Source: Escherichia phage HHU8. From it: a DNA stretch of 42,059 bases. Shown piece after piece: positions 16,727 through 38,609 of the stretch; the stretch's first letter is position 1, and each line of letters opens with the position of its first letter. Both the position numbers and the translations under genes were made by a program. Under the pieces are notes generated by a model. It saw nothing but the letters and a program-made list of their open reading frames with translations, made no database searches and was not told the origin of the DNA. The DNA is taken from the sequence record PQ641135. One strand, written 5' to 3'.

Positions 16727-19159
16727 TCAGCAGAAAAACTTGCTTGATTGTTTCACAAGTTGGATATCCAGATTGCCACGCTCAGGTGCAACAGCATTGT
16801 ATCGTACAGCAAGTTGTTGAATCGGGTCATGTTGCTCATACATCTGCACGAACTTTTCACGAATGACCTTGTGGAGTAACCCGGCATGAGCTGCTGCCAC
16901 CCCGAACGAATCGTGGATAGACACCATGTACACCCCGTTATTCCACATCTCCCACAACACCTTCATCATGTGGCTGGCATCCATAGCGTGTACGAAATTC
17001 GGAGCAATCGCAGCGGCACACTTCCTGCCATCAGGCTTGTCCAGATACTCGCGCAGCTTAATGCTGTGGATACCCATGAGGTTGATGTTATTGAGCATCG
17101 TCTCCTTGCTGGCTTGATACAGGTTCACCACTCGCAGCCCTGACGGTGCAATGATTTCCACGTACTCACCGTTGGCTGCCGCCTCTACCGCGATAGCCTG
17201 CAACCATGCCATCAGCTCTGCCGCCTTCGGCACAACGCGAGGGATTGCATTCCACATGAACTCTGCGATGAACTGCGCACACTCCAGTAGGCTCTTGCCG
17301 TCCGGCAGCTTGACCCGGTTCTCACGCAGGTACAGGCAGTAGTAGTCCACCATCCCGTGTCGGGTTGCCCCGTACACGTATGTCATCACTGGCTTCTTAG
17401 CCATCGCCCGGACAATGCCGATTGAAACAAGCCACGAACCCATCTGCGTCGGTGACTGCGCTTCACTATCTTCAAGAGCCTGCATCGCCGCTGCTGCCGT
17501 CTTGAGATATATGTCTGCTTTTCTTCCCACGCTATTGATAAGATTGACAGCAGCACCTCCAACTTCATCTCGTAGCATCGCACTGAGGTGCTGGAGTCCT
17601 GAACAGGTAGCATCCCATTGCGTGACCACTCGGCAGGGATAAGTCTCAGGATTTCCTGAGTCGATAGCGCGAATGAGTTCAACAGAGGCAGCCCACGCGC
17701 TGATAGGGCTATCGGCCTCTGACCAGAACGAATCAAATGCCTCTGGAAGACGGCACGCCTCACGTAGTCGGGGGAGTGTCTTGTCCGTCCACGCCGCCCG
17801 GTCGTCGAAGTCTGTTGCGTCGTAGCCGAAGCAATTCGCAACATGAACCTTGAGCCAGAACAGCCCCTCAGTTCCGAGAGCCACTGGTTCCGCAAGCTCA
17901 AGCAGCGCTCGCACCGCGTCGATAGACTGAGGATTAAGGGTCGAAGAATAATAAATTCGGCCCCGCGTATCGGCGTAAGTCGGGAGATAAATCCTATCGT
18001 ACTGCGCATACCTGTCTGCCTCTTTGACTGCACCATTCAGCGCCAGCATCTGTGACGTGAACTTACGCAACTCATTGTAATACAAGCGAGTCTTCACCTT
18101 GTACTCATGAGCTTCGGCATCCATCTGCTGCTGCATCTCTGGTGGGAACTTGCTGATGTACTGTGCAAAGCTCACACCAGCCGGGATGGTAAACGGAAGT
18201 GTAGGTTCACGAGGCGGCACAGGCAGCCCCATAACGCCTGTACGGTTCGTTCGCAGGAACTCCAGTACCATTGGGTTAACTCGGTACGGAACGCTGCTGA
18301 GCATCATACACGGCTCTATAACGGGGGTAGGGTCAACGTTCAATGCACGATACCCTTTATGGTTCATGCGGCTCATTACCCGGTACATCGCTGCCTGCCC
18401 ATCTGAATGCCACATACCGCTGCGACCGTTAGGTGCAATCTGCTTCGGCGGGATAATCAGTGGTGGGCAGCACATGCCATCAGCACGCGGCATGTCCAAC
18501 CAGTCATTCATCGTAGCCAGCACATCCTCGTGCAATGCAAAGTGTGCCGTACCGCGCTGGCGCTGGTTGCCTCCGACACGAATCGTGGACACCAGACCAG
18601 TTGGCTCAACGCACTTCATCATAAGCTTGCCAATGGTAATCAGCGCACGCTGCGGCAGCACATCAATCTCCACCCCAACGTTCGCCGCCGACGCACGCGC
18701 TTTGTTGTAGACGTGGTTCGCTGACTTCGAGCGAGACTTCTTCACGTCCTGCTTAACGCGCTCCATGTACGCCGCCTGCTGCGGCCCGGTCTGCTTCGCC
18801 CGGAGGTACACCACCTCAGCCATCAGTGCCTTGCCCATGCTCTTGAGCAGACTCAGTACCGCCTGCTCCGACGCAGCACCGGACACCGCCATGCTCAGTG
18901 CAAGAGAGGCACACGCTTTGGTGCCAATCTCACGCATGTACGTCCGGTACTGCGCACCATACCCACGGGTCGTTTCGCTCAGGGTTTCTTGCATCGCAGC
19001 TTCGACCAGAGGATAAGCCTCAACCATCATACGCTGGAGCAACGGCACCGACCCGGCGCGGCCACTGGCCATCGCCTCTTTGATATTATCCAGCCAGCCC
19101 TCGCGGTGTCTGGCTCGCGCTTCTTCTTCAAGTCGAATCTGCTCTGCAAGTAAATCCAC
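16727..19159 (-). CDS. single-subunit DNA-dependent RNA polymerase (T7 RNAP family)
   Basis: 810-aa ORF with hallmark motifs: DATCSGLQH (motif A), VMTYVYGAT (motif B region), HDSFG (motif C). Start is GTG at 19157-19159, 5 nt after a perfect AAGGAG. Confidence 0.9.
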   Translation of the reverse strand: MDLLAEQIRLEEEARARHREGWLDNIKEAMASGRAGSVPLLQRMMVEAYPLVEAAMQETLSETTRGYGAQYRTYMREIGTKACASLALSMAVSGAASEQAVLSLLKSMGKALMAEVVYLRAKQTGPQQAAYMERVKQDVKKSRSKSANHVYNKARASAANVGVEIDVLPQRALITIGKLMMKCVEPTGLVSTIRVGGNQRQRGTAHFALHEDVLATMNDWLDMPRADGMCCPPLIIPPKQIAPNGRSGMWHSDGQAAMYRVMSRMNHKGYRALNVDPTPVIEPCMMLSSVPYRVNPMVLEFLRTNRTGVMGLPVPPREPTLPFTIPAGVSFAQYISKFPPEMQQQMDAEAHEYKVKTRLYYNELRKFTSQMLALNGAVKEADRYAQYDRIYLPTYADTRGRIYYSSTLNPQSIDAVRALLELAEPVALGTEGLFWLKVHVANCFGYDATDFDDRAAWTDKTLPRLREACRLPEAFDSFWSEADSPISAWAASVELIRAIDSGNPETYPCRVVTQWDATCSGLQHLSAMLRDEVGGAAVNLINSVGRKADIYLKTAAAAMQALEDSEAQSPTQMGSWLVSIGIVRAMAKKPVMTYVYGATRHGMVDYYCLYLRENRVKLPDGKSLLECAQFIAEFMWNAIPRVVPKAAELMAWLQAIAVEAAANGEYVEIIAPSGLRVVNLYQASKETMLNNINLMGIHSIKLREYLDKPDGRKCAAAIAPNFVHAMDASHMMKVLWEMWNNGVYMVSIHDSFGVAAAHAGLLHKVIREKFVQMYEQHDPIQQLAVRYNAVAPERGNLDIQLVKQSSKFFC

Positions 19160-19161
19160 GA

Positions 19162-19476
19162 CTACTCCTTAACTTGTTTGCTCAGGTGCTCAATCAGCTT
19201 GCCGTCTTCGGCGTATTGCTCGACGAGGCCCACGCCATATGATGGCTTGCTCGGCTCGTCATATCCCGGCTGCGCTTGGTTACGCTGGCCTAAGTCACTC
19301 AGCACAGAATGTTGCAGTACCGGGTCATTCGTACCCGTACCGCCGCAGGCTTCGCAATCCATCAGGACTACTTGCCCACCAATCAACATGCCACGGTAGG
19401 TGCCGCTACCCATGCAGGCACCACACACTTTATGGTCAACCACCGTGTCGTCAATGGCTCTTTGATAACGACTCAT
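19162..19476 (-). CDS. small DnaJ-type zinc-finger protein
   Basis: 105 aa from the ATG at 19474-19476 (AGGAG 6 nt upstream); two CxxCxGxG repeats (CGACMGSG, CEACGGTG). Confidence 0.5.
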   Translation of the reverse strand: MSRYQRAIDDTVVDHKVCGACMGSGTYRGMLIGGQVVLMDCEACGGTGTNDPVLQHSVLSDLGQRNQAQPGYDEPSKPSYGVGLVEQYAEDGKLIEHLSKQVKE

Positions 19477-19484
19477 ATAATCTC

Positions 19485-19661
19485 CTACGCAAGACAGGCG
19501 AACAGAACAGCAGGGATGACAGCCAAGAATACCCACAGGATAAAGCCTTCTGCCCCGGCAGTGTCAACGTGGCTCTTGTTGTACTGGTCGCACGCGGCCA
19601 GACAGACAACAGAGAACAGGGCAAACCATACCACAGCTACAATCCAAAGTAAAACACTCAT
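19485..19661 (-). CDS. small membrane protein with two predicted transmembrane helices
   Basis: 58 aa from the ATG at 19659-19661 (MSVLLWIVAVVWFALFSVV...FILWVFLAVIPAVLFACLA); two hydrophobic stretches separated by a short polar loop. Confidence 0.4.
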   Translation of the reverse strand: MSVLLWIVAVVWFALFSVVCLAACDQYNKSHVDTAGAEGFILWVFLAVIPAVLFACLA

Positions 19662-20236
19662 TTGCGTTTCCTTAATTCGAGTTCCAGAATGAACAGCGCA
19701 TTGCACGCGGCGTGCGCCAGATGGTGCAGGTTGGATTCGCTATCCAGTTCCTCACCCTTACCCACCGCCGTCAGGTGTCGCAGCAGTGCTGACTTGTAGC
19801 GTTCCTCACCTTCCGGTACGGTCTGCCACGAGTGGGCTGCATACTTCTCAGCGCCGAAGGTCAGCACGCTGGCCACAGCCTCCAGTGCATTAGGGCAGCC
19901 GTCGAGCAGCAGTGACATACGAGGCTTGCCGCCGTCGAACTTCATGCCACCCGGCCCAGCGCCCTTGGCCACAGCCACCTCAACATCATGGGCCGGGTCG
20001 TAAGGGTCAACCGGGATGAATGCAATATCGACTTCCTTCACCTCGTAAGGTTCCAGCACCAGCAGGTGTGTCTTGCCATCCTTGACACAGGTGTAATAAT
20101 CACGGCTATCGTTCGGCACATCGTACGGCTCGTCGTACGTCAGGATGACACCTTGCTCAGCAATGTCGCTCAGCAGCGTGCCAGTACCCCAGTTGCGTGC
20201 CGGGTCTAAGATAAACTTCTGACCTTTCTTACCCAT
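19658..20236 (-). CDS. protein with a dATP/dGTP pyrophosphohydrolase-like C-terminal domain
   Basis: 192 aa from the ATG at 20234-20236 (GGAGGT upstream). The C-terminal half (MKFDGGKPRMSLL...LTFGAEKY...W...RYKSALLRHL...ESNLHHLAHAACNALFILE) follows the pattern I recall for the phage dATP/dGTP diphosphohydrolase N-terminal domain family; recalled from memory, not searched. Confidence 0.45.
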   Translation of the reverse strand: MGKKGQKFILDPARNWGTGTLLSDIAEQGVILTYDEPYDVPNDSRDYYTCVKDGKTHLLVLEPYEVKEVDIAFIPVDPYDPAHDVEVAVAKGAGPGGMKFDGGKPRMSLLLDGCPNALEAVASVLTFGAEKYAAHSWQTVPEGEERYKSALLRHLTAVGKGEELDSESNLHHLAHAACNALFILELELRKRK

Positions 20237-20756
20237 TCGCCTTACCTCCATCGACCTTAGAATCAGCGCCATCGTATTTAGCATTGGCATGAACATACTC
20301 ATGATTGTCCTCGTACCGGGTCACTTCATAAACCGTGATGCCGAGGCCACGCATGAAGTCAACGATGTGTGGCAGGTCGTCGAAAGCACACACGATGTTC
20401 TCAATGCCAATGTCCTCCAGCGCCGCCAGCTTCATCTCTGTGTCTTTACGGCAGTCGCCAATCTCTCTCATGATTAGCTTGTCGTAAACCACACCAGCTT
20501 CGTCAAGCCATTGCTCTGTTACTTCACGGGCCACGGCCCCGCGTCCGGTCAGGATGATAATGCGATACGTGAGGGCCAAGGCGTTCACAATATCAATCGT
20601 GTCCTGAAACGCAGGGTCGTCAGCGCCAGCCAAGTTGAACTCGGCCCACGCTTCATCAAGGTGCCGACGCTCCGGTGGAGGCAGCAGGTGTAGACGCCAG
20701 CGGCCATCAGCCAGCGTGCCGTCCAAATCAACGACTACGGTATCTTTCATGTGCAT
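20229..20756 (-). CDS. HAD-superfamily phosphatase (polynucleotide 3'-phosphatase-like)
   Basis: HAD motif I DxDGT at the N-terminus (VVVDLDGTLADG) when started at the ATGs at 20748-20756; the longer track ORF extends upstream in frame. Downstream acidic motifs are consistent with a HAD fold. Confidence 0.55.
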   Translation of the reverse strand: MHMKDTVVVDLDGTLADGRWRLHLLPPPERRHLDEAWAEFNLAGADDPAFQDTIDIVNALALTYRIIILTGRGAVAREVTEQWLDEAGVVYDKLIMREIGDCRKDTEMKLAALEDIGIENIVCAFDDLPHIVDFMRGLGITVYEVTRYEDNHEYVHANAKYDGADSKVDGGKANG

Positions 20757-20946
20757 CGTGTGCTTCCTCAAGAGCGAAGATAATATCTCGGACGTATGCC
20801 CAAGGCAACCAGACTTCCTCACCGTCCTGCGAAATACAGACGGTGCCATCTTTATACAGCTCGACCTGAGTGTTGGCCTCCCACCCAATGGAGAGGCCAT
20901 CCTCTTTGAGCTGCACCACATCTTCTTGGTACAGTGTTCTCGTCAC
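20728..20946 (-). CDS. hypothetical protein
   Basis: 72-aa ORF starting at a GTG that overlaps the upstream stop (GTGA), GGAG 9 nt upstream; no recognisable motif. Confidence 0.3.
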   Translation of the reverse strand: MTRTLYQEDVVQLKEDGLSIGWEANTQVELYKDGTVCISQDGEEVWLPWAYVRDIIFALEEAHDAHERYRSR

Positions 20947-22070
20947 TCCAACATCTCCGGGCTAATAGTGAATCGTGCGACCTCACCGTACCGGGCATGA
21001 TAAGTAATCACGCTCGCGCTGCGCTCACTCAACCAACCACCACGCGAAGCATAGGCATCCTTCGCCGCCAGCGTACGGTGCTGCTCGACAATCATGACAC
21101 CAGACTCCAGTACCTTCTTGTGGTGCAGGTGGCCAACGTGTGCATACGCATGTTTGGTTCGGCCATACACTTCGCGGAACTTGGCGACCAGTACAGTCTC
21201 CAGTTGTTCTGCCTTACGCTTGTGACCATGGTGGAAGAACAGTGCCGTCTCGCCATGCTCATAGCAGTAGTACGGGTCAGGGCTGCGGTCAACGGTAACA
21301 CGCGGCTCGTCGGCGTACAGTACATGCAGCAGCTCACGCATCCAGATTGAGCTGGCCATGTCGTGGTTGCCCTCGGCGCACACTACGTGAACCTGTGGGA
21401 ACTTATCCAGCAGCATACCAATGATGCGGCGCTGCGCCCGGATAGCCACACGCACCAGTTTCTGGAATCGCGTGTCAGCATCAAGCACATGCCCACTCGA
21501 TGGCGTTACTGCATCTAACCCATCCCAGTGCAGGAAGTCACCGAGCTGGCCGAAGATGGCAACCTGTGCTGGCGGCGCACTGGCAATCGCTGCCGAGAAC
21601 CACTTAACCAGCAGGTCTTCTGCAATCTTCATATCCCAGTCGTCGCCAGTTTCATCTGCCCATGCCAGCATACCGAGGTGGTAGTCAGTCAGCACAAACA
21701 GGTTCAGCAGCTCAGCAGGTGCCGCGCCCCCGGCGTACGGTCGGGCAGCTTCCGGGGTGATGCTCTCACTAATTGCATCGACAGCTTCTTGCAGCAGCGC
21801 CAGCTCCTGCTCACGGTCGAGTGCCGTCTTCACCCACTGCATGACAACGTTGCCGTCCTTATCGTACAGCGTGGACGTACCCTTCACCGCATACGGCTCC
21901 GGCACTTCCTTCGTCATGTCGTGCTCAGGACTCCAGCCGCTCTTGGCAAGCTGGCGCTTCCGGTATCGAATGGCGCTCTCGGTCATGTCGTGCTTCTCAG
22001 CAATGGCCTTGGTGCCAAGCCCTTCGGCAATGTCTTCTTTGAGTTGGTGATTAGTTAACTTGGTCATCAT
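20943..22070 (-). CDS. calcineurin-like metallophosphoesterase with N-terminal helix-turn-helix, putative DNA exonuclease
   Basis: 375-aa ORF; phosphoesterase motifs DxH (VLTDYHLG), GD (GQLGDFLH), GNHD (CAEGNHD) and GHxH (VGHLHH); the N-terminal ~40 aa look like a sigma-70 region-4 / LuxR-type HTH. ATG at 22068-22070 with AAGGGG upstream. Confidence 0.65.
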   Translation of the reverse strand: MMTKLTNHQLKEDIAEGLGTKAIAEKHDMTESAIRYRKRQLAKSGWSPEHDMTKEVPEPYAVKGTSTLYDKDGNVVMQWVKTALDREQELALLQEAVDAISESITPEAARPYAGGAAPAELLNLFVLTDYHLGMLAWADETGDDWDMKIAEDLLVKWFSAAIASAPPAQVAIFGQLGDFLHWDGLDAVTPSSGHVLDADTRFQKLVRVAIRAQRRIIGMLLDKFPQVHVVCAEGNHDMASSIWMRELLHVLYADEPRVTVDRSPDPYYCYEHGETALFFHHGHKRKAEQLETVLVAKFREVYGRTKHAYAHVGHLHHKKVLESGVMIVEQHRTLAAKDAYASRGGWLSERSASVITYHARYGEVARFTISPEMLE

Positions 22071-22399
22071 TTCCCCTTAGTGATTAAGGCTCGCGCTTTC
22101 GCGGCTGCCGCCTTCTTACGTCTCTCGGCTGTCGCCGCTTTCTTCTCTGCCTCGGTCTTGTGCGTTGGGTACATCAGACCAGTGTGTTGCTTACGTCGCC
22201 ACTCGATGGCGCTGTCCAGCCAGTCATCAACTGTGCGCTGGCGCTTCGCTCGGTTGGCAGAGTTCTCTACCTTGCCGAGCTGAGCATTACACCAGCGGCA
22301 GATGACACCGCGAATCTCCCCACTCACATGGTCGTGGTCAACCACCATGAGCTTGAGGTCTACCATCGGCTCGTTACAGAGTGGGCAAGGACAGCCCAT
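22067..22399 (-). CDS. endonuclease VII (Holliday-junction resolvase, T4 gp49-like)
   Basis: Zn-binding and catalytic signature CPCPLC...VVDHDHVSGEIRGVICRWCNAQLG matches the Endonuclease VII family pattern. Start is uncertain: ATGs at 22399, 22414 and 22459 all overlap the end of the exonuclease gene. Confidence 0.7.
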   Translation of the reverse strand: MGCPCPLCNEPMVDLKLMVVDHDHVSGEIRGVICRWCNAQLGKVENSANRAKRQRTVDDWLDSAIEWRRKQHTGLMYPTHKTEAEKKAATAERRKKAAAAKARALITKGK

Positions 22400-23348
22400 C
22401 GCATTCTTCCGCATCTGCAACAAGGTCGCGCCAGTCACTTTCCGCATACCATTCCTCATTCAGTTTCTTGTGCAGCCAGACACGCAGCTCCTTGCTCAAG
22501 GTCAGCGTATTGAGGTGGGCTGCGAATGAGTAGGTCGGCGTGCGGTACAGCCACAACGCCACTGCTTCTGGCCATGGGTTCTGGTCGCGCACCATGTACT
22601 CACGGAGCACGAACTCAGCTACAGCCGACTCGTCATCAGTCTCCTGATAATCGACCAGCATATCGTAAGCTGTCTGCTTACCAATCTTCTTGACACCAGC
22701 GATGTTGTCGGCACTGTCGCCCATCAGCATCTGCGCCCAAAAGAAGATAGGCCCATGACCAATCAGCGACTTGTCACTCTTGGTCTCGTGCCACCACAGA
22801 CGGCCCACACCTTTGCACGGCTCCAGTACCTTGTTGTCGTACGGGTCGAGGAACCTGCCCGGCCAGCAGCGCAGGTCTTTATCTGCGCTGTAGATTACTG
22901 CATCGTTAATGCCAATCGTCCACGCGTCCATGATTAAGGTGTCGTCAGCCTCGAACTCAAAGTTCAGGTGAACGTACCAGTCCTCACCATCAGGAACGTT
23001 GAACATGTTCCGGCCAATTGCTTTACGCAACGGCTCAACCAGACCGGGCTTGCGGTCTTTGTCGCGGTTGCCTTGGTACAGCTTGGCCCCACGCAGCTTG
23101 TACCGTCCAGCTTTCGTACACTCCGCAGCGGTCAACTCGATACGAACTGACTGAGCATTGGCGAGGAACTTGGCAGTCAGTACCCCGGAACAGAATCGTG
23201 TCTTCGCCGTCTCGATGTTCTTCGTGGTTGCTGCCGCGACGTAGACTGTCGAGTCAGCATCACACAGCAGAATACGACCAGACACGTAACCATCAAACTG
23301 GTCATCAAGTTCCTCGGCATTGTGAAGCAAGCGTTTCAATCTGCTCAT
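22374..23348 (-). CDS. 5'-3' exonuclease (T7 gp6-like FEN-family nuclease)
   Basis: 324-aa ORF; helix-3-turn-helix motif MLMGDSADNIAGVKKIGKQTA typical of 5' nucleases; ATG at 23346-23348 with GGAGAG upstream. Confidence 0.8.
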   Translation of the reverse strand: MSRLKRLLHNAEELDDQFDGYVSGRILLCDADSTVYVAAATTKNIETAKTRFCSGVLTAKFLANAQSVRIELTAAECTKAGRYKLRGAKLYQGNRDKDRKPGLVEPLRKAIGRNMFNVPDGEDWYVHLNFEFEADDTLIMDAWTIGINDAVIYSADKDLRCWPGRFLDPYDNKVLEPCKGVGRLWWHETKSDKSLIGHGPIFFWAQMLMGDSADNIAGVKKIGKQTAYDMLVDYQETDDESAVAEFVLREYMVRDQNPWPEAVALWLYRTPTYSFAAHLNTLTLSKELRVWLHKKLNEEWYAESDWRDLVADAEECDGLSLPTL

Positions 23349-24437: not shown

Positions 24438-26896
24438 AATGCGATACCCTTACTCGTCAGGAATTGTCTCTTAAACTCCAGCACTTCATCGGCTGTCGTC
24501 TCTACGTGGTGCTTCTCGTACATGCTTGGCCCTGCTTCCACCTCTGCCGGGAACGGCACTGTCAGGTTATACTCTGGCCATACGTGGTTATAGTATTCCG
24601 GGATGCTCTCCATGATTGCCTTGAGTCCAACGAAGAACTCATGAGGGCAGTCAGGTGCAATGTCGAAATAGAATGCGTCATGCACTTGGTTGATGGGAAC
24701 CACACGCCCACCAAAGAAGTCGTTCGATAGCAGCCAGCGGAACAGCAGGCCACCGATTCCCTGTACCCAAAATGCGGTCTCACCCTGAATAGGGTAGTTA
24801 CGCATCTGAGTTGGTTTGTATTCCATCAGGTGAGCACGCGCCGCCTTGTTCCATTTCTCGTACTGACGGAATGAATAACAAGTTCCACCCGGCGACCGGA
24901 AGTGACCACGGCGATACACCTGCCATCTTCCGTTCTCGTCCTGCTCCTTGAACACATTGCTCTGTCCACTTTTCTCTACGGCTGGGAAGATAACCGAGTC
25001 GAACCATTCTTCAACTTCCGGGAACAGACCCTTCTCGTTGTCGATGAACGCTTGAGCTTCTTCCTCAGAGCAACCAGTCGAGTACGCAATGCCTCGCGCT
25101 GTTGCACCATACTGGTATGAGAACGCCTTCGGCTTAATGTCAGTACGCATCTGACTGTATCGTGCATGGTCAGGATGGGATTCATCCTTGCACTTCTTAA
25201 GCACGTCCTCGTATGGCTCGTTGAGCTGAGCTGACAGACGCATACAGTGCATGTCGATACCGTCGAGCAATGCACGAATCAGGTTCTTATCCTTGCTGAA
25301 CCCGGCCAGCCCCACCACTTCCAGTGCCGAGTAGTCAGCCTCAACGATGCGGCCACCTTCACCAAAGCGGGAGGTGAACATCTGCTTAACTTTACTCGTG
25401 CCTTTACGTGGCAAGTTCTGACTGTTAGGTCGCGCCGATGATAGGCGCGTCGTCTCCGTCGCGGTCATGTTGATGGTGTGGTGTACGATACTGTCCGGCT
25501 GGATGAACTGCATCATCCCCGACTGGCCAGTCACGTTCCCTTCTTCATCGAACGTCTCGCTCAGGTAGTAAGTGCCGAGGTCTTTCTGTGCCTTGGCTCG
25601 GTCGGCAATCTCCACCACGCCGGGAATCTTACGCGCTGCCAGAATGTCCAGCACCTCACCCGCCGTACTGAATACCGGACTGCCATCGGCAAGCCTGCGC
25701 TTACCAACCCAGTCACCCGTGCGCCGCAGGTATTCGCCCGGTCGCTTCGGGTCTTCCCATTCGAGGTTGTCTGCAATCTCCTTCGCTCGTTTGTCCTGCA
25801 CACGCAGGAGGCCCGGCATTCGGAACAGCACCTCACCCCACTTGGTATCCACCTCATCCGTTGCCAGCTTCTCGAACTTGGGCGCACCCTTGTACTTCCC
25901 GCTGGTGTAGATGGTCTGGTGTACCTTCTCAACCGGGTCATACCATAGCCCGGTCTCGGCATCCCACTCGCACTCGTTGGTATGCTTGACCCACTTGTCC
26001 TTGCCACGCTTGAACAGTGGTGCATCCACCTTGACGTAAATGAGATTGCCATCCCCATCCCGGCGCTCGACTCGCGCCTTGTACTTCATCACGCCGCCGA
26101 ACACGAACGCACTCATGTGGTAAGCTGACGTGAACTTGAACTGGTCACGCGCTTCCTGTGGCATGTCGGCTGGCAGGTAACTCAGCAGCGTATCAGTCAG
26201 CCCACTGATTGCATCCTGCAACTCACGGCGGTTGCGCTCGGCAACCTCGCGGTCAACGTGCAGACCAGCGTGCATCATGTACGCCCACATGAGCATACCT
26301 TCGAACCGGGTCAGTGCCATTGGCAACATGCCCTGCTTCGTCAGCTCAGACCACTGACCAACGAACAGCTTGGTCGTGTTCTCAATATCGCCGGACGGCC
26401 CGGACAGATATTCGCTCAGCAGCTCAGGGTCAATCTGGCTGGTCAGGTATCCCGACTCCCACATTGCCTTGACTGCATCCACCTTGTGAGTACCACCATA
26501 CTTCGGTGCTGTCTCGTTCAAGGATGGGTACTGGGATTGTTGGTGCGTCAGCAGATACTCAGCATACGCCGTACAGAATACACGGCCACCTCGTTTGAGG
26601 AAGGCGATGAACTCGTCACCGTAATGCTCGAACCACCAACTCAATTCATACGGCGCATTGTGGGCTACCAGAATGTTCGTGTCGGGATGCAGGTGCAGGC
26701 TCTTGTTCTGCAACCAATCCTCCCTCGAACTGTACCGATATTCCTCGCGCTCGTAGAACACCCAGCCATCCTTGGTCAGCACACAGTCACGCTGACCCTG
26801 CATCACCACATAGTTATCAGGGCAGCGGGGAGATGCTAGCTCCCCGTACCACTCGTGGTTCTCTGTTTCATAGTCAATGATACAGAACCTTGGCAT
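24434..26896 (-). CDS. DNA polymerase (family A, T7 gp5-like) with 3'-5' exonuclease domain
   Basis: 820-aa ORF; Exo I motif at the N-terminus (IIDYETE); a polymerase motif B-like K...YG (KPKAFSYQYGAT); C-terminal ...NQVHDAF. Confidence 0.9.
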   Translation of the reverse strand: MPRFCIIDYETENHEWYGELASPRCPDNYVVMQGQRDCVLTKDGWVFYEREEYRYSSREDWLQNKSLHLHPDTNILVAHNAPYELSWWFEHYGDEFIAFLKRGGRVFCTAYAEYLLTHQQSQYPSLNETAPKYGGTHKVDAVKAMWESGYLTSQIDPELLSEYLSGPSGDIENTTKLFVGQWSELTKQGMLPMALTRFEGMLMWAYMMHAGLHVDREVAERNRRELQDAISGLTDTLLSYLPADMPQEARDQFKFTSAYHMSAFVFGGVMKYKARVERRDGDGNLIYVKVDAPLFKRGKDKWVKHTNECEWDAETGLWYDPVEKVHQTIYTSGKYKGAPKFEKLATDEVDTKWGEVLFRMPGLLRVQDKRAKEIADNLEWEDPKRPGEYLRRTGDWVGKRRLADGSPVFSTAGEVLDILAARKIPGVVEIADRAKAQKDLGTYYLSETFDEEGNVTGQSGMMQFIQPDSIVHHTINMTATETTRLSSARPNSQNLPRKGTSKVKQMFTSRFGEGGRIVEADYSALEVVGLAGFSKDKNLIRALLDGIDMHCMRLSAQLNEPYEDVLKKCKDESHPDHARYSQMRTDIKPKAFSYQYGATARGIAYSTGCSEEEAQAFIDNEKGLFPEVEEWFDSVIFPAVEKSGQSNVFKEQDENGRWQVYRRGHFRSPGGTCYSFRQYEKWNKAARAHLMEYKPTQMRNYPIQGETAFWVQGIGGLLFRWLLSNDFFGGRVVPINQVHDAFYFDIAPDCPHEFFVGLKAIMESIPEYYNHVWPEYNLTVPFPAEVEAGPSMYEKHHVETTADEVLEFKRQFLTSKGIAL

Positions 26897-27567
26897 TAAG
26901 TGTTCTCCGACATGCGTTCTACGTAGTCCATAATGTGGCCATACAAGGCAGCATGCTTCTGCATCATATATGCCTTACGTCCATCACTAGCATCTGCACG
27001 CACAGTATGCAGAGTTAGTAAATCCTCGTAGTCTGTAACCTCGCGGAACTCCACAGGGAAATAGCTAGCTGCTTCTGGTGTGAAGCTTGGCTCGTATGGG
27101 TACGCCATGAAGTCGTTAGGGTCACGGCTGTACTGTCCGGAGTATCGCGGGATACTGGACGGGAAGTAGAACTGGTTCAGGTTGAAGTCGAACTCACCCA
27201 GCACCTGTGACCAGCAGCCACACTTGCTCACGATGATATCGACCGGGCCTAACTTGAACACACCATACAGACGGGAACCGAAGTCGCCGCCTTCGCTCGC
27301 ATCGTGGTAGCTTGGCATGAACTCATACGGCAGATTGTGCTGCTTGGCATAGTCCTCCAGTCTGGAGTCCAGCCAGTCCAGTCGGCCAACCACACGGCCT
27401 ATGTCGCTACCCCAACCGAAGACCACAATGTCATAGTCCTTCGGCTCAACACCCAGCGCGGTATCCCTTGCCCCTCCCCCGGCAACCACGAAGTTCAGTT
27501 CTTCGGATTGCAGCAGACGGCAGATATCTTCTGCCCACACGCGCTTGACTTCGGCATTACTTGTCAT
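26896..27567 (-). CDS. Pol-beta-superfamily nucleotidyltransferase (CCA-adding enzyme / poly(A) polymerase head-domain-like)
   Basis: 223-aa ORF; N-terminal motif FVVAGGGARDTALGVEPKDYDIVVFG is a close match to the class II CCA-adding / poly(A) polymerase head domain signature (GGxxRD...KDxDxxV). ATG at 27565-27567 with AAGGGG upstream. Confidence 0.55.
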   Translation of the reverse strand: MTSNAEVKRVWAEDICRLLQSEELNFVVAGGGARDTALGVEPKDYDIVVFGWGSDIGRVVGRLDWLDSRLEDYAKQHNLPYEFMPSYHDASEGGDFGSRLYGVFKLGPVDIIVSKCGCWSQVLGEFDFNLNQFYFPSSIPRYSGQYSRDPNDFMAYPYEPSFTPEAASYFPVEFREVTDYEDLLTLHTVRADASDGRKAYMMQKHAALYGHIMDYVERMSENT

Positions 27568-36163: not shown

Positions 36164-36556
36164 CTACGCCTCTACTACCCAAAATTGCGCACCATCGTAA
36201 GTCCAAGCAGTGTACTGCCCGGCTTCCATCTCGGCCTCAGTCTTACTGACTAACTTGCCAGCAGGCTTGCCCGGACATGGTGAATCCATGAAGATTGCAT
36301 CATCATCATCAGTCACTACCATGATGCAGTCCTGTTCAAGAGCCTTACAGAACAGCTTAATAGCCTGCCTGATTTCATAGATTCCATCGACAGGAAATAC
36401 CATGCTCAACTCGTACTGATTGTCGAACTTGCCTGTCAGTGTGACCGGAATCACTCCGAACATATCCTGCACCGTTCGCAGTGCCTTGCAATGAAGCGCC
36501 AGATTAACACACTCAGCATTGTTCTGACGATATGCGCTTGCATAGATACGGTACAT
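36164..36556 (-). CDS. hypothetical protein, first early gene downstream of the sigma70-type promoters
   Basis: 130-aa ORF; ATG at 36554-36556 with GGAGAA upstream; lies ~450 nt downstream of the tandem promoters. Confidence 0.5.
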   Translation of the reverse strand: MYRIYASAYRQNNAECVNLALHCKALRTVQDMFGVIPVTLTGKFDNQYELSMVFPVDGIYEIRQAIKLFCKALEQDCIMVVTDDDDAIFMDSPCPGKPAGKLVSKTEAEMEAGQYTAWTYDGAQFWVVEA

Positions 36557-38072: not shown

Positions 38073-38609
38073 CTACAGCGTCGCACAGTAAGCGCTACAG
38101 CGTTTTGCACGGGCAACCAAGGCATCCCTATAGCGAACCACTGTCGGGGCTGTAGAAGCCTTTAGGAACGCAATACGAAGGTCACAGATGGCTGCTGCTG
38201 CGGAGTGAGGTTCCAGACGTTTGGCTGCTGCCACGGTAGCAGGGCCAATAACCCCGTCTTGTGCAACACCGCATACCCGCTGTAGAGCTTTCGCAGCACG
38301 GGAGACGCCGGAGTTGACGCCGTAATCAAACACGGCACATGCAATCGCAGGGTGAAGCTCGTCACCTCTGATGGGGCTGTAGTAGTCCCGGCGATAGATT
38401 GCCTCGGCTTGCTCTTTGGTGAGCTGCTTGATAGGCACACACACAGTGCCGCCAAGCCCAGTAGGGACACCACAAGCTCTACCATCCAGCTTCCCATCAC
38501 GAGCGTCACTAATTCCATGGTTGGTCTCCCCTCCAGTGTCACCGGGCAGCTTGGTGTACCCACCCTCGGCCAGCCCGGTGAACTTCATACAGATTTCAAA
38601 GTTAGTCAT
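38073..38609 (-). CDS. endolysin: glycoside hydrolase family 108-like N-terminal domain plus PG_binding_3-like C-terminal domain
   Basis: 178-aa ORF; N-terminal GLAEGGYTKLPGDTGGETNHGI fits the GH108 lysozyme motif pattern (EGGY...D.GG.T..GI), and the C-terminal GVAQDGVIGPATVAAAKR fits a peptidoglycan-binding domain. No signal peptide, so holin-dependent. ATG at 38607-38609 overlaps the upstream stop (TAATG). Confidence 0.75.
   Translation of the reverse strand: MTNFEICMKFTGLAEGGYTKLPGDTGGETNHGISDARDGKLDGRACGVPTGLGGTVCVPIKQLTKEQAEAIYRRDYYSPIRGDELHPAIACAVFDYGVNSGVSRAAKALQRVCGVAQDGVIGPATVAAAKRLEPHSAAAAICDLRIAFLKASTAPTVVRYRDALVARAKRCSAYCATL

Follow-up and report, generated by a model that had tools for sequence, protein, structure and literature searches.

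Three adjacent genes for phosphoesterase-type enzymes lie in the genome of Escherichia phage HHU8 (sequence record PQ641135), and they raise the question of whether such enzymes serve the nucleotide pool, the healing of nucleic-acid ends, or no common purpose at all. The window analysed here, 42,059 nucleotides long, is the whole phage genome, and all its genes are on the minus strand. It belongs to the genus Bonnellvirus (Autographiviridae, now Autoscriptoviridae/Stentvirinae) and is similar to other Bonnellvirus phages. The three genes are:

20943-22070, minus strand: gene 1, helix-turn-helix (HTH), linker and metallophosphoesterase (MPE), 375 aa, PHROG 704 'DNA repair exonuclease'
20229-20756, minus strand: gene 2, stand-alone PNKP-type HAD 3'-phosphatase, 175 aa
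19658-20236, minus strand: gene 3, SH3-like N-domain and DUF5664 deoxynucleoside triphosphate (dNTP) pyrophosphohydrolase domain, 192 aa

A preliminary description, made from the letters of the sequence, had proposed these three open reading frames (ORFs) and placed them between the exonuclease genes and the RNA polymerase. Both points agree with our results: endonuclease VII and a 5'-3' exonuclease are found on one side and the RNA polymerase on the other, and identical boundaries are annotated for all three genes in Escherichia phage mellemsur and LF82-23. The proposed families were also recovered in profile and structure searches, as PHROG 704, HAD_PNKP and PF18909. Phage mellemsur is 96.5% identical across a 3.4-kb stretch around the locus, and there genes 1, 2 and 3 are annotated as 'phosphoesterase', 'polynucleotide 5'-kinase/3'-phosphatase-like protein' and 'putative phosphodiestherase', respectively. 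The three genes are already catalogued: published coliphages have annotated genes that are nearly the same, and every one of the three belongs to a known family, so that for the window itself little is at stake.

The reading that we favour, and regard as somewhat probable, is that the three genes, co-transcribed and coupled, close the DNA-metabolism module at its distal end and encode accessory enzymes that act on the supply of deoxynucleotides and DNA and not on RNA. Genes 1-3 all have ATG starts, and ahead of each is a purine-rich stretch that was read by eye as a ribosome-binding site. Stop/start overlaps chain the genes for endonuclease VII, the MPE, a 72-aa ORF, the HAD phosphatase and the DUF5664 protein, which indicates that the chain is one translationally coupled unit.

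The phosphatase and its genomic partners

Gene 2 matches Pfam PF25109 HAD_PNKP with 55 bits (cut-off 27.6, E=1.2e-14) and PHROG 415 with E=8.8e-55, and its matches in the PDB are the phosphatase domain of Pnkp1, 4xrp (the best, E=1.2e-7), and that of T4 Pnkp, 5uj0 and 1ltq. The DxDGT motif, on which the preliminary description had based a likeness to the PNKP 3'-phosphatase, is DLDGT at residues 10-14, and the likeness extends to the whole set of T4 catalytic residues. Both the PDB match and an alignment of stand-alone homologues place D10, D12, T70, K109 and D127 at T4 Pnkp D165, D167, S211, K258 and D278; in the T4 enzyme D165 is the nucleophile, D167 the acid-base and D278 a Mg2+ ligand (PMC3592404). 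The phosphatase domains of T4 Pnkp (PseT) and Capnocytophaga Pnkp1 share the DxDxT HAD fold and every catalytic residue with gene 2, but unlike these proteins gene 2 has neither a 5'-kinase domain nor a ligase partner, and it carries a clade-specific RLHLLP motif. No P-loop 5'-kinase domain was found in the 175-aa protein with Pfam, PHROG or NCBIfam, and profile matches revealed no kinase or ligase gene among the other window ORFs scanned. For the ligase, no family was matched by the scanned ORFs, and among the early genes no unassigned ORF has the size of a ligase.

To describe the surroundings of the three genes in other phages, 80 IMG/VR loci were collected for each anchor gene and their ORFs were searched with the profiles of the other genes. 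The numbers of loci with each neighbour were as follows, dNMP kinase standing for deoxynucleoside monophosphate kinase:

HAD-anchored loci (n=80): MPE 39 (directly upstream), DUF5664 18, dNMP kinase 62, RNA polymerase 16, all three genes 8
MPE-anchored loci (n=80): HAD 11, DUF5664 15, dNMP kinase 5, RNA polymerase 5, all three genes 6
DUF5664-anchored loci (n=80): MPE 4, HAD 13 (directly upstream), dNMP kinase 0, RNA polymerase 20, all three genes 4

The HAD-anchored loci, whose phosphatases are 46-100% identical, all have a downstream gene on the same strand for either a dNMP kinase (62/80) or a DUF5664 protein (18/80), never both, and a polynucleotide kinase follows the HAD gene in none of the 80. 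After dereplication of the HAD proteins at 90% there were 17 clusters with the kinase versus 13 with DUF5664, and one cluster at 70% identity was mixed. This type of phosphatase, unlike T4 Pnkp, therefore has a dNMP kinase or DUF5664 as its constant genomic partner. Since the partner is never a polynucleotide kinase, a role in the nucleotide pool or in salvage is favoured over the healing of RNA ends. The phosphatase is thus firmly tied to deoxynucleotide enzymes, with the MPE as a frequent but optional neighbour.

The neighbouring kinase matched PHROG 139 in all three examples scanned (~1e-41 to 1e-51). One of the scanned kinases has a Pfam DNMK match above threshold (locus L029, 2e-21), and this gene lies upstream of the MPE in a locus without HAD; the two HAD-adjacent kinases scanned (L005 and L012) have no Pfam DNMK match. 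The possibility that the HAD-adjacent kinase of Webervirus is the missing polynucleotide kinase was considered and ruled out, as it is a dNMP kinase.

Several observations concern how these genes are labelled. In Webervirus and other Drexlerviridae-like phages a dNMP kinase gene follows the HAD gene, which carries the label 'polynucleotide kinase' (L005:5654-6235, L012:6734-7315 and 60 further IMG/VR loci). In one record the HAD-adjacent dNMP kinase is annotated as 'phosphomevalonate kinase', and in annotations the two genes mimic a split Pnkp. Thousands of phage proteins called 'polynucleotide kinase' are kinase-less phosphatases whose constant neighbours are enzymes at the dNMP or dNTP level, and the label probably misdirects functional thinking. 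A stand-alone PNKP-type HAD phosphatase was also seen in the T4-like Krischvirus Escherichia phage MIZ3, directly downstream of nrdB (L088:789-1265); a second HAD match elsewhere in that record is probably the true pseT.

The MPE gene is found in more varied company. In 15 of the 80 MPE-anchored loci DUF5664 lies no more than 5 kb away; nine of the 15 have no HAD gene, and in five of these nine (L021, L069, L074, L076 and L080) DUF5664 abuts or overlaps the MPE ORF, on either side. Among GenBank phages, Webervirus Roth24 has the MPE, then HAD, then the dNMP kinase, while Vibrio phage K99 has the MPE, then an HNH gene, a hypothetical gene and DUF5664; in Jerseyvirus and Warwickvirus the MPE stands alone, in other contexts. 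The exact trio is an arrangement of the Bonnellvirus lineage.

The DUF5664 protein

Gene 3 matches Pfam PF18909 (DUF5664) with 113.6 bits (cut-off 27, E=4.6e-33) at residues 97-190 and PHROG 19680 over its full length, and a match to PHROG 801 is limited to the N-terminal positions 65-190 of the 476 of that family. Its AlphaFold2 (AF2) model has a predicted local distance difference test (pLDDT) score of 84.6, and the protein is made up of two domains:

19967-20236, minus strand: N-terminal beta-rich (SH3/KOW-like) domain of gene 3, residues 1-90
19667-19948, minus strand: all-alpha DUF5664 (PF18909) domain of gene 3, residues 97-190

The DUF5664 domain is extremely conserved, with 39 invariant columns in 42 homologues, while the extension ahead of it varies strongly. 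DUF5664 was found in 825 phage records of GenBank, and many of these are phiKMV/KP34-like Autographiviridae. No sequence relatives were found in the PDB, either with the single protein or with the family profile, NCBIfam gave no match, and a Foldseek comparison of the model with the PDB returned only weak SH3-like matches, to the N-domain. The ExxE...ExxD metal-binding motif of the all-alpha NTP pyrophosphohydrolases (MazG, HisE, dimeric dUTPase and AF0060) is not found as an invariant motif in gene 3. Among its acidic residues, conservation is seen at D101 and at E162, D165 and E167, and the latter three sit in a loop that precedes the last helix.

PF18909 is described by Pfam as the 'N-terminal' domain of a two-domain enzyme, the dATP/dGTP diphosphohydrolase of Acinetobacter phage SH-Ab 15497, in which DUF5664 is combined with DUF550/MazZ and from which the Pfam name comes. 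Gene 3 shares PF18909 with this enzyme, but in place of DUF550/MazZ (PF04447) it has the SH3-like N-domain, and PF18909 is its only Pfam match. The earlier proposal that the C-terminal half resembles the dATP/dGTP pyrophosphohydrolase domain family is right as far as PF18909 is concerned, but the MazZ domain is absent and the part that is present is the one called N-terminal by Pfam. We considered whether gene 3, judging from the Pfam wording, carries only a non-catalytic accessory domain. This was ruled out, since a stand-alone DUF5664 protein from Arthrobacter phage Wayne, when purified, converts dATP, dUTP and dGTP to dNMPs, with a kcat of 0.48/s and a Km of 20 uM on dATP (2026; PMC12884076).

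The Wayne protein, gp51 (ALY10775.1), has the same layout as gene 3, with ~95 aa at the N-terminus and then PF18909, which takes up residues 98-195 of the 198 aa; the two proteins are 43% identical over the core. K131, Y132, W137, Y147, R153, H154, E162, D165, E167 and H172 (numbering of the window protein) are common to both, and 15 of the 29 highly conserved DUF5664 positions of gene 3 are identical in Wayne. On the other hand, H175, S168 and the N-terminal K-x-D-x-x-K motif of gene 3 are not conserved in gp51, and the N-domains are unrelated. The phages also differ, as Wayne is a siphophage with a 2-aminoadenine (Z) genome and PurZ0, in which the enzyme removes dATP. A Z-genome was ruled out for the window phage: tblastn with Wayne PurZ0 and DmtZ-DutZ gave no match in the window, and this lack of PurZ and Dut homologues indicates a phage with a canonical genome. 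Because of these differences in sequence and genome type, the substrate preference of gene 3 may differ from that of gp51. In a phage with a canonical genome its role would be to clean or balance the pool and not to exclude adenine, and the likeliest specificity is the clean-up or rebalancing of dUTP or purine dNTPs.

A different label is attached to many relatives of gene 3. In PHROG 5033/2252 and many GenBank records DUF5664 proteins are called 'endolysin' or 'endolysin; inhibits RNA polymerase', for instance in Vibrio phage K99 (L006:6025-6396) and Pseudomonas phage PhiCHU. The endolysin label was rejected for the relatives of gene 3, as PF18909 is the sole Pfam match of gene 3 and the phage has a separate endolysin at 38073-38609. 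The label looks like a propagated misannotation, and it persists in PHROGs and GenBank though one member of the family is a demonstrated dNTP pyrophosphohydrolase.

The HTH-metallophosphoesterase

Gene 1 matches PHROG 704 over its full length (residues 3-374, E=2e-146); the match to Pfam Metallophos is weak (E=0.018) and below the gathering threshold. In the AF2 model (pLDDT 77.9) three helices at the N-terminus are followed by a linker of a beta-hairpin and a helix and then by a metallophosphoesterase sandwich, which corresponds to the following parts:

21942-22052, minus strand: N-terminal tri-helical HTH of gene 1, residues ~7-43 (AF2 helices 7-15, 20-26 and 31-43)
21756-21932, minus strand: family-specific conserved linker of gene 1, residues ~47-105 (SPEHDMT..VKG.STLYD...QWVK beta-hairpin and helix)
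20946-21710, minus strand: MPE catalytic domain of gene 1, residues ~121-375

The HTH is considered real because the homologues match HTH families in Pfam: among 42 homologues HTH_23 was found in 22 and HTH_28 in 18, and others match HTH_8 (Fis), GerE (LuxR), LysR or Sigma70_r4. The linker has G64, S66, W79 and K81 as invariant columns, with modelled strands at 60-69 and 75-84 and a helix at 86-101. In the catalytic domain the metal-binding motifs D129-x-H131, G-D178, G-N235-H236-D, H280/H281/H283 and G-H314-x-H316 are invariant in the 42 homologues, and three loops (134-144, 184-198 and 336-348) are strongly conserved and family-specific, with low pLDDT. Gene 1 thus has the DxH, GD, GNH(D/E), H and GHxH motifs and the alpha/beta sandwich of a calcineurin-like metallophosphoesterase. 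The GDxHG, GDxVDRG and GNHE motifs of the PPP type (lambda NinI) and of Clostridium thermocellum Pnkp (CthPnkp) are absent.

The closest folds are MJ0936, SbcD, Mre11 and PolD-DP1, and gene 1 carries the Mre11/SbcD-style motifs DxHLG, GDxxH, GNHD and GHxH. Unlike Mre11 and SbcD, gene 1 has no Rad50/SbcC partner, no SbcC/Rad50-like ORF being found in the 42-kb genome, and it has the N-terminal HTH, the family-specific linker and the three conserved loops. PDB sequence searches with the single protein and the family profile gave no relative of solved structure, and NCBIfam gave no match. From the DxHLG, GNHD and GHxH motifs together with the DNA-binding domain we infer that gene 1 is a Mn2+-dependent DNA nuclease or phosphodiesterase, held on DNA by the HTH.

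The preliminary description regarded the fusion of an HTH to a phosphoesterase as unusual. It is, on the contrary, the standard architecture of a large phage family with thousands of members. PHROG 704 comprises at least 4901 clusters at 90% identity, with 5669 representatives at 50% identity for E<=1e-3 and 1584 for E<=1e-30, and among full-length representatives from the top matches the HTH profile of the family was matched in 102/139 and the linker profile in 124/139. The family is present in 2043 of 50,697 GenBank phage records, or ~4% of sequenced phage genomes, chiefly in Drexlerviridae, Webervirus, Jerseyvirus/Kagunavirus and Vibrio phages. The PHROG 704 proteins of Drexlerviridae, Guernseyvirinae (Jerseyvirus, Kagunavirus) and Webervirus are 40-55% identical to gene 1 over the full length and have the same layout of HTH, linker and MPE, but their context is different: they precede the lysis genes, lie within the tail module, or have HAD and dNMP kinase genes after them. 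Literature searches found no published characterisation of any PHROG 704 member or of MPEs in Drexlerviridae/T1-like phages, and the family would be a reasonable biochemical target.

One short part of gene 1 is unusually well conserved in DNA. A 92-bp segment at ~21597-21688, coding for residues ~128-158 with motif I, is 85-89% identical in nucleotides to siphophages, for example Jerseyvirus and Kagunavirus, whose gene 1 proteins outside the segment are ~55% identical. The segment matched 127 records, 98 of them Salmonella phages, and six listed records with short matches share only this segment. Its conservation could reflect a very strong constraint or be the footprint of recombination.

A probable role in deoxynucleotide supply, and the alternatives

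If the three enzymes act on deoxynucleotide and DNA supply, the HTH-tethered MPE would join endonuclease VII and the 5'-3' exonuclease in cutting DNA. The gene 2 phosphatase would then, by way of an Asp10-phosphate intermediate, remove 3'-phosphates from DNA fragments, ends or deoxynucleotides, its presumed substrates, which would make re-phosphorylation or extension possible. Gene 3 would split selected dNTPs into dNMP and pyrophosphate, an activity known for its homologue. The analysis itself shows the families, the complete active sites, the overlapping genes and their context in other phages; the actual substrates, and the single pathway that joins the three steps, are what we infer. The preliminary description had offered both nucleotide-pool manipulation and end healing as roles, and it is the first of these that gains from the activity of the DUF5664 homologue (PMC12884076) and from the dNMP kinase and DUF5664 partners.

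Several points weigh against this reading. A dNTP-destroying enzyme and a dNMP kinase, which occupy the same slot, work in opposite directions, which makes it hard to see one simple pathway. In most MPE loci neither HAD nor DUF5664 lies closer than 5 kb, and HAD and MPE are missing from most DUF5664 loci (present in 13/80 and 4/80), which implies that the enzymes can work alone. Furthermore, the counts are uncorrected for phylogeny and come from 80-locus samples of closest relatives, which are phylogenetically redundant, and as the PNKP-type phosphatase of T4 acts on RNA ends, RNA substrates are conceivable for gene 2 when judged by sequence alone.

A bolder form of the idea, which we put forward tentatively and hold to be on the doubtful side, is that of a previously undescribed mobile cassette for deoxynucleotide salvage in Autographiviridae, Drexlerviridae and other phages. 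The cassette would consist of the MPE, the kinase-less phosphatase and an interchangeable dNMP kinase or DUF5664 protein, with the 'PNK-like' protein as a 3'-phosphatase of deoxynucleotides or DNA fragments and the PHROG 704 enzyme as the DNA-degrading entry point.

The alternative that survives best, though we think it rather unlikely, is that there is no joint function and that three independent accessory genes (for example a recombination or replication nuclease, a cleaner of DNA 3'-ends and a house-cleaning NTPase) have gathered where the end of the replication module tolerates insertions. The many MPE and DUF5664 loci without the other two genes fit such an explanation, as does the solitary MPE of Jerseyvirus and Warwickvirus, and the full trio was seen only in Bonnellvirus-like genomes (6/80, 4/80 and 8/80 in the three samples). 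It does not, however, agree well with the coupling of the phosphatase to a dNMP- or dNTP-level enzyme in 80/80 loci, with the recurrence of MPE-HAD and MPE-DUF5664 pairs in unrelated phage families and in varied gene orders, or with the overlapping reading frames in the window.

End healing is less probable still, and we give it only a small chance. Here gene 2 and the MPE would heal the 3'-phosphate or 2',3'-cyclic phosphate ends left by host anticodon nucleases or other ribotoxins, in the manner of T4 Pnkp/Rnl1, and the host RtcB or another ligase would seal them. In Clostridium thermocellum Pnkp the healing is done by a metallophosphoesterase. The best solved relatives of gene 2 are indeed two phosphatase domains, that of Pnkp1, which belongs to an RNA-repair complex, and that of T4 Pnkp, and the latter heals 2',3'-cyclic phosphate ends (PMC3592404). 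The proposal is weakened by the lack of a 5'-kinase domain or gene and of a ligase in the phage ORFs scanned, by the adjacent kinase being a dNMP kinase and not a polynucleotide kinase in 62/80 related loci, and by the type of the gene 1 MPE, which is unlike the healing enzymes of the lambda-phosphatase or CthPnkp type.

A counter-defence role is very improbable. In it the MPE, the DUF5664 protein or both would break down alarm signals made of cyclic (oligo)nucleotides, or chain-terminator nucleotides, and the phosphatase would finish the products. PADLOC gave no match and the profile searches recovered no known anti-defence family, the HTH, invariant and DNA-binding, points to DNA as the substrate, and the measured activity of DUF5664 is on canonical dNTPs (PMC12884076).

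Neighbouring genes and other features

The order of the genes on the minus strand is exonuclease, endonuclease VII, gene 1, 72-aa ORF, gene 2, gene 3, 58-aa ORF, Q-like protein and RNA polymerase. The positions of the neighbours are:

22374-23348, minus strand: 5'-3' exonuclease
22067-22459, minus strand: endonuclease VII
20728-20946, minus strand: 72-aa ORF between genes 1 and 2, its GTG start overlapping the gene 1 stop
19485-19661, minus strand: 58-aa hydrophobic, membrane-like ORF
19162-19476, minus strand: Q-like zinc-ribbon protein
16727-19159, minus strand: RNA polymerase

The two small ORFs are additional to the three genes described earlier. The 72-aa ORF is annotated as hypothetical in mellemsur and LF82-23, and it has a weak match to Pfam IN_DBD_C (SH3-like, E=1e-4). 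It was found in both Bonnellvirus loci from GenBank and, among the 80 IMG/VR MPE loci, in the four that are closest. The 58-aa ORF, with the hydrophobic stretches MSVLLWIVAVVWFALFSVVCLAACDQYNKSH...FILWVFLAVIPAVLFACLA, is annotated in mellemsur and missing from the otherwise near-identical LF82-23.

Directly upstream of the RNA polymerase gene is the zinc-ribbon protein with a CxxC...CxxC pattern, which matches PHROG 6060 'anti-termination protein Q-like' with E=4.6e-15. In a phage that relies on a polymerase of its own, a Q-like protein is an odd companion for the single-subunit RNA polymerase. Elsewhere on the minus strand a nucleotidyltransferase (26896-27567; PHROG 1614, E=1.9e-39) was found directly downstream of the DNA polymerase gene, and a small S-adenosylmethionine-dependent methyltransferase (36164-36556; PHROG 2226) among the early genes.

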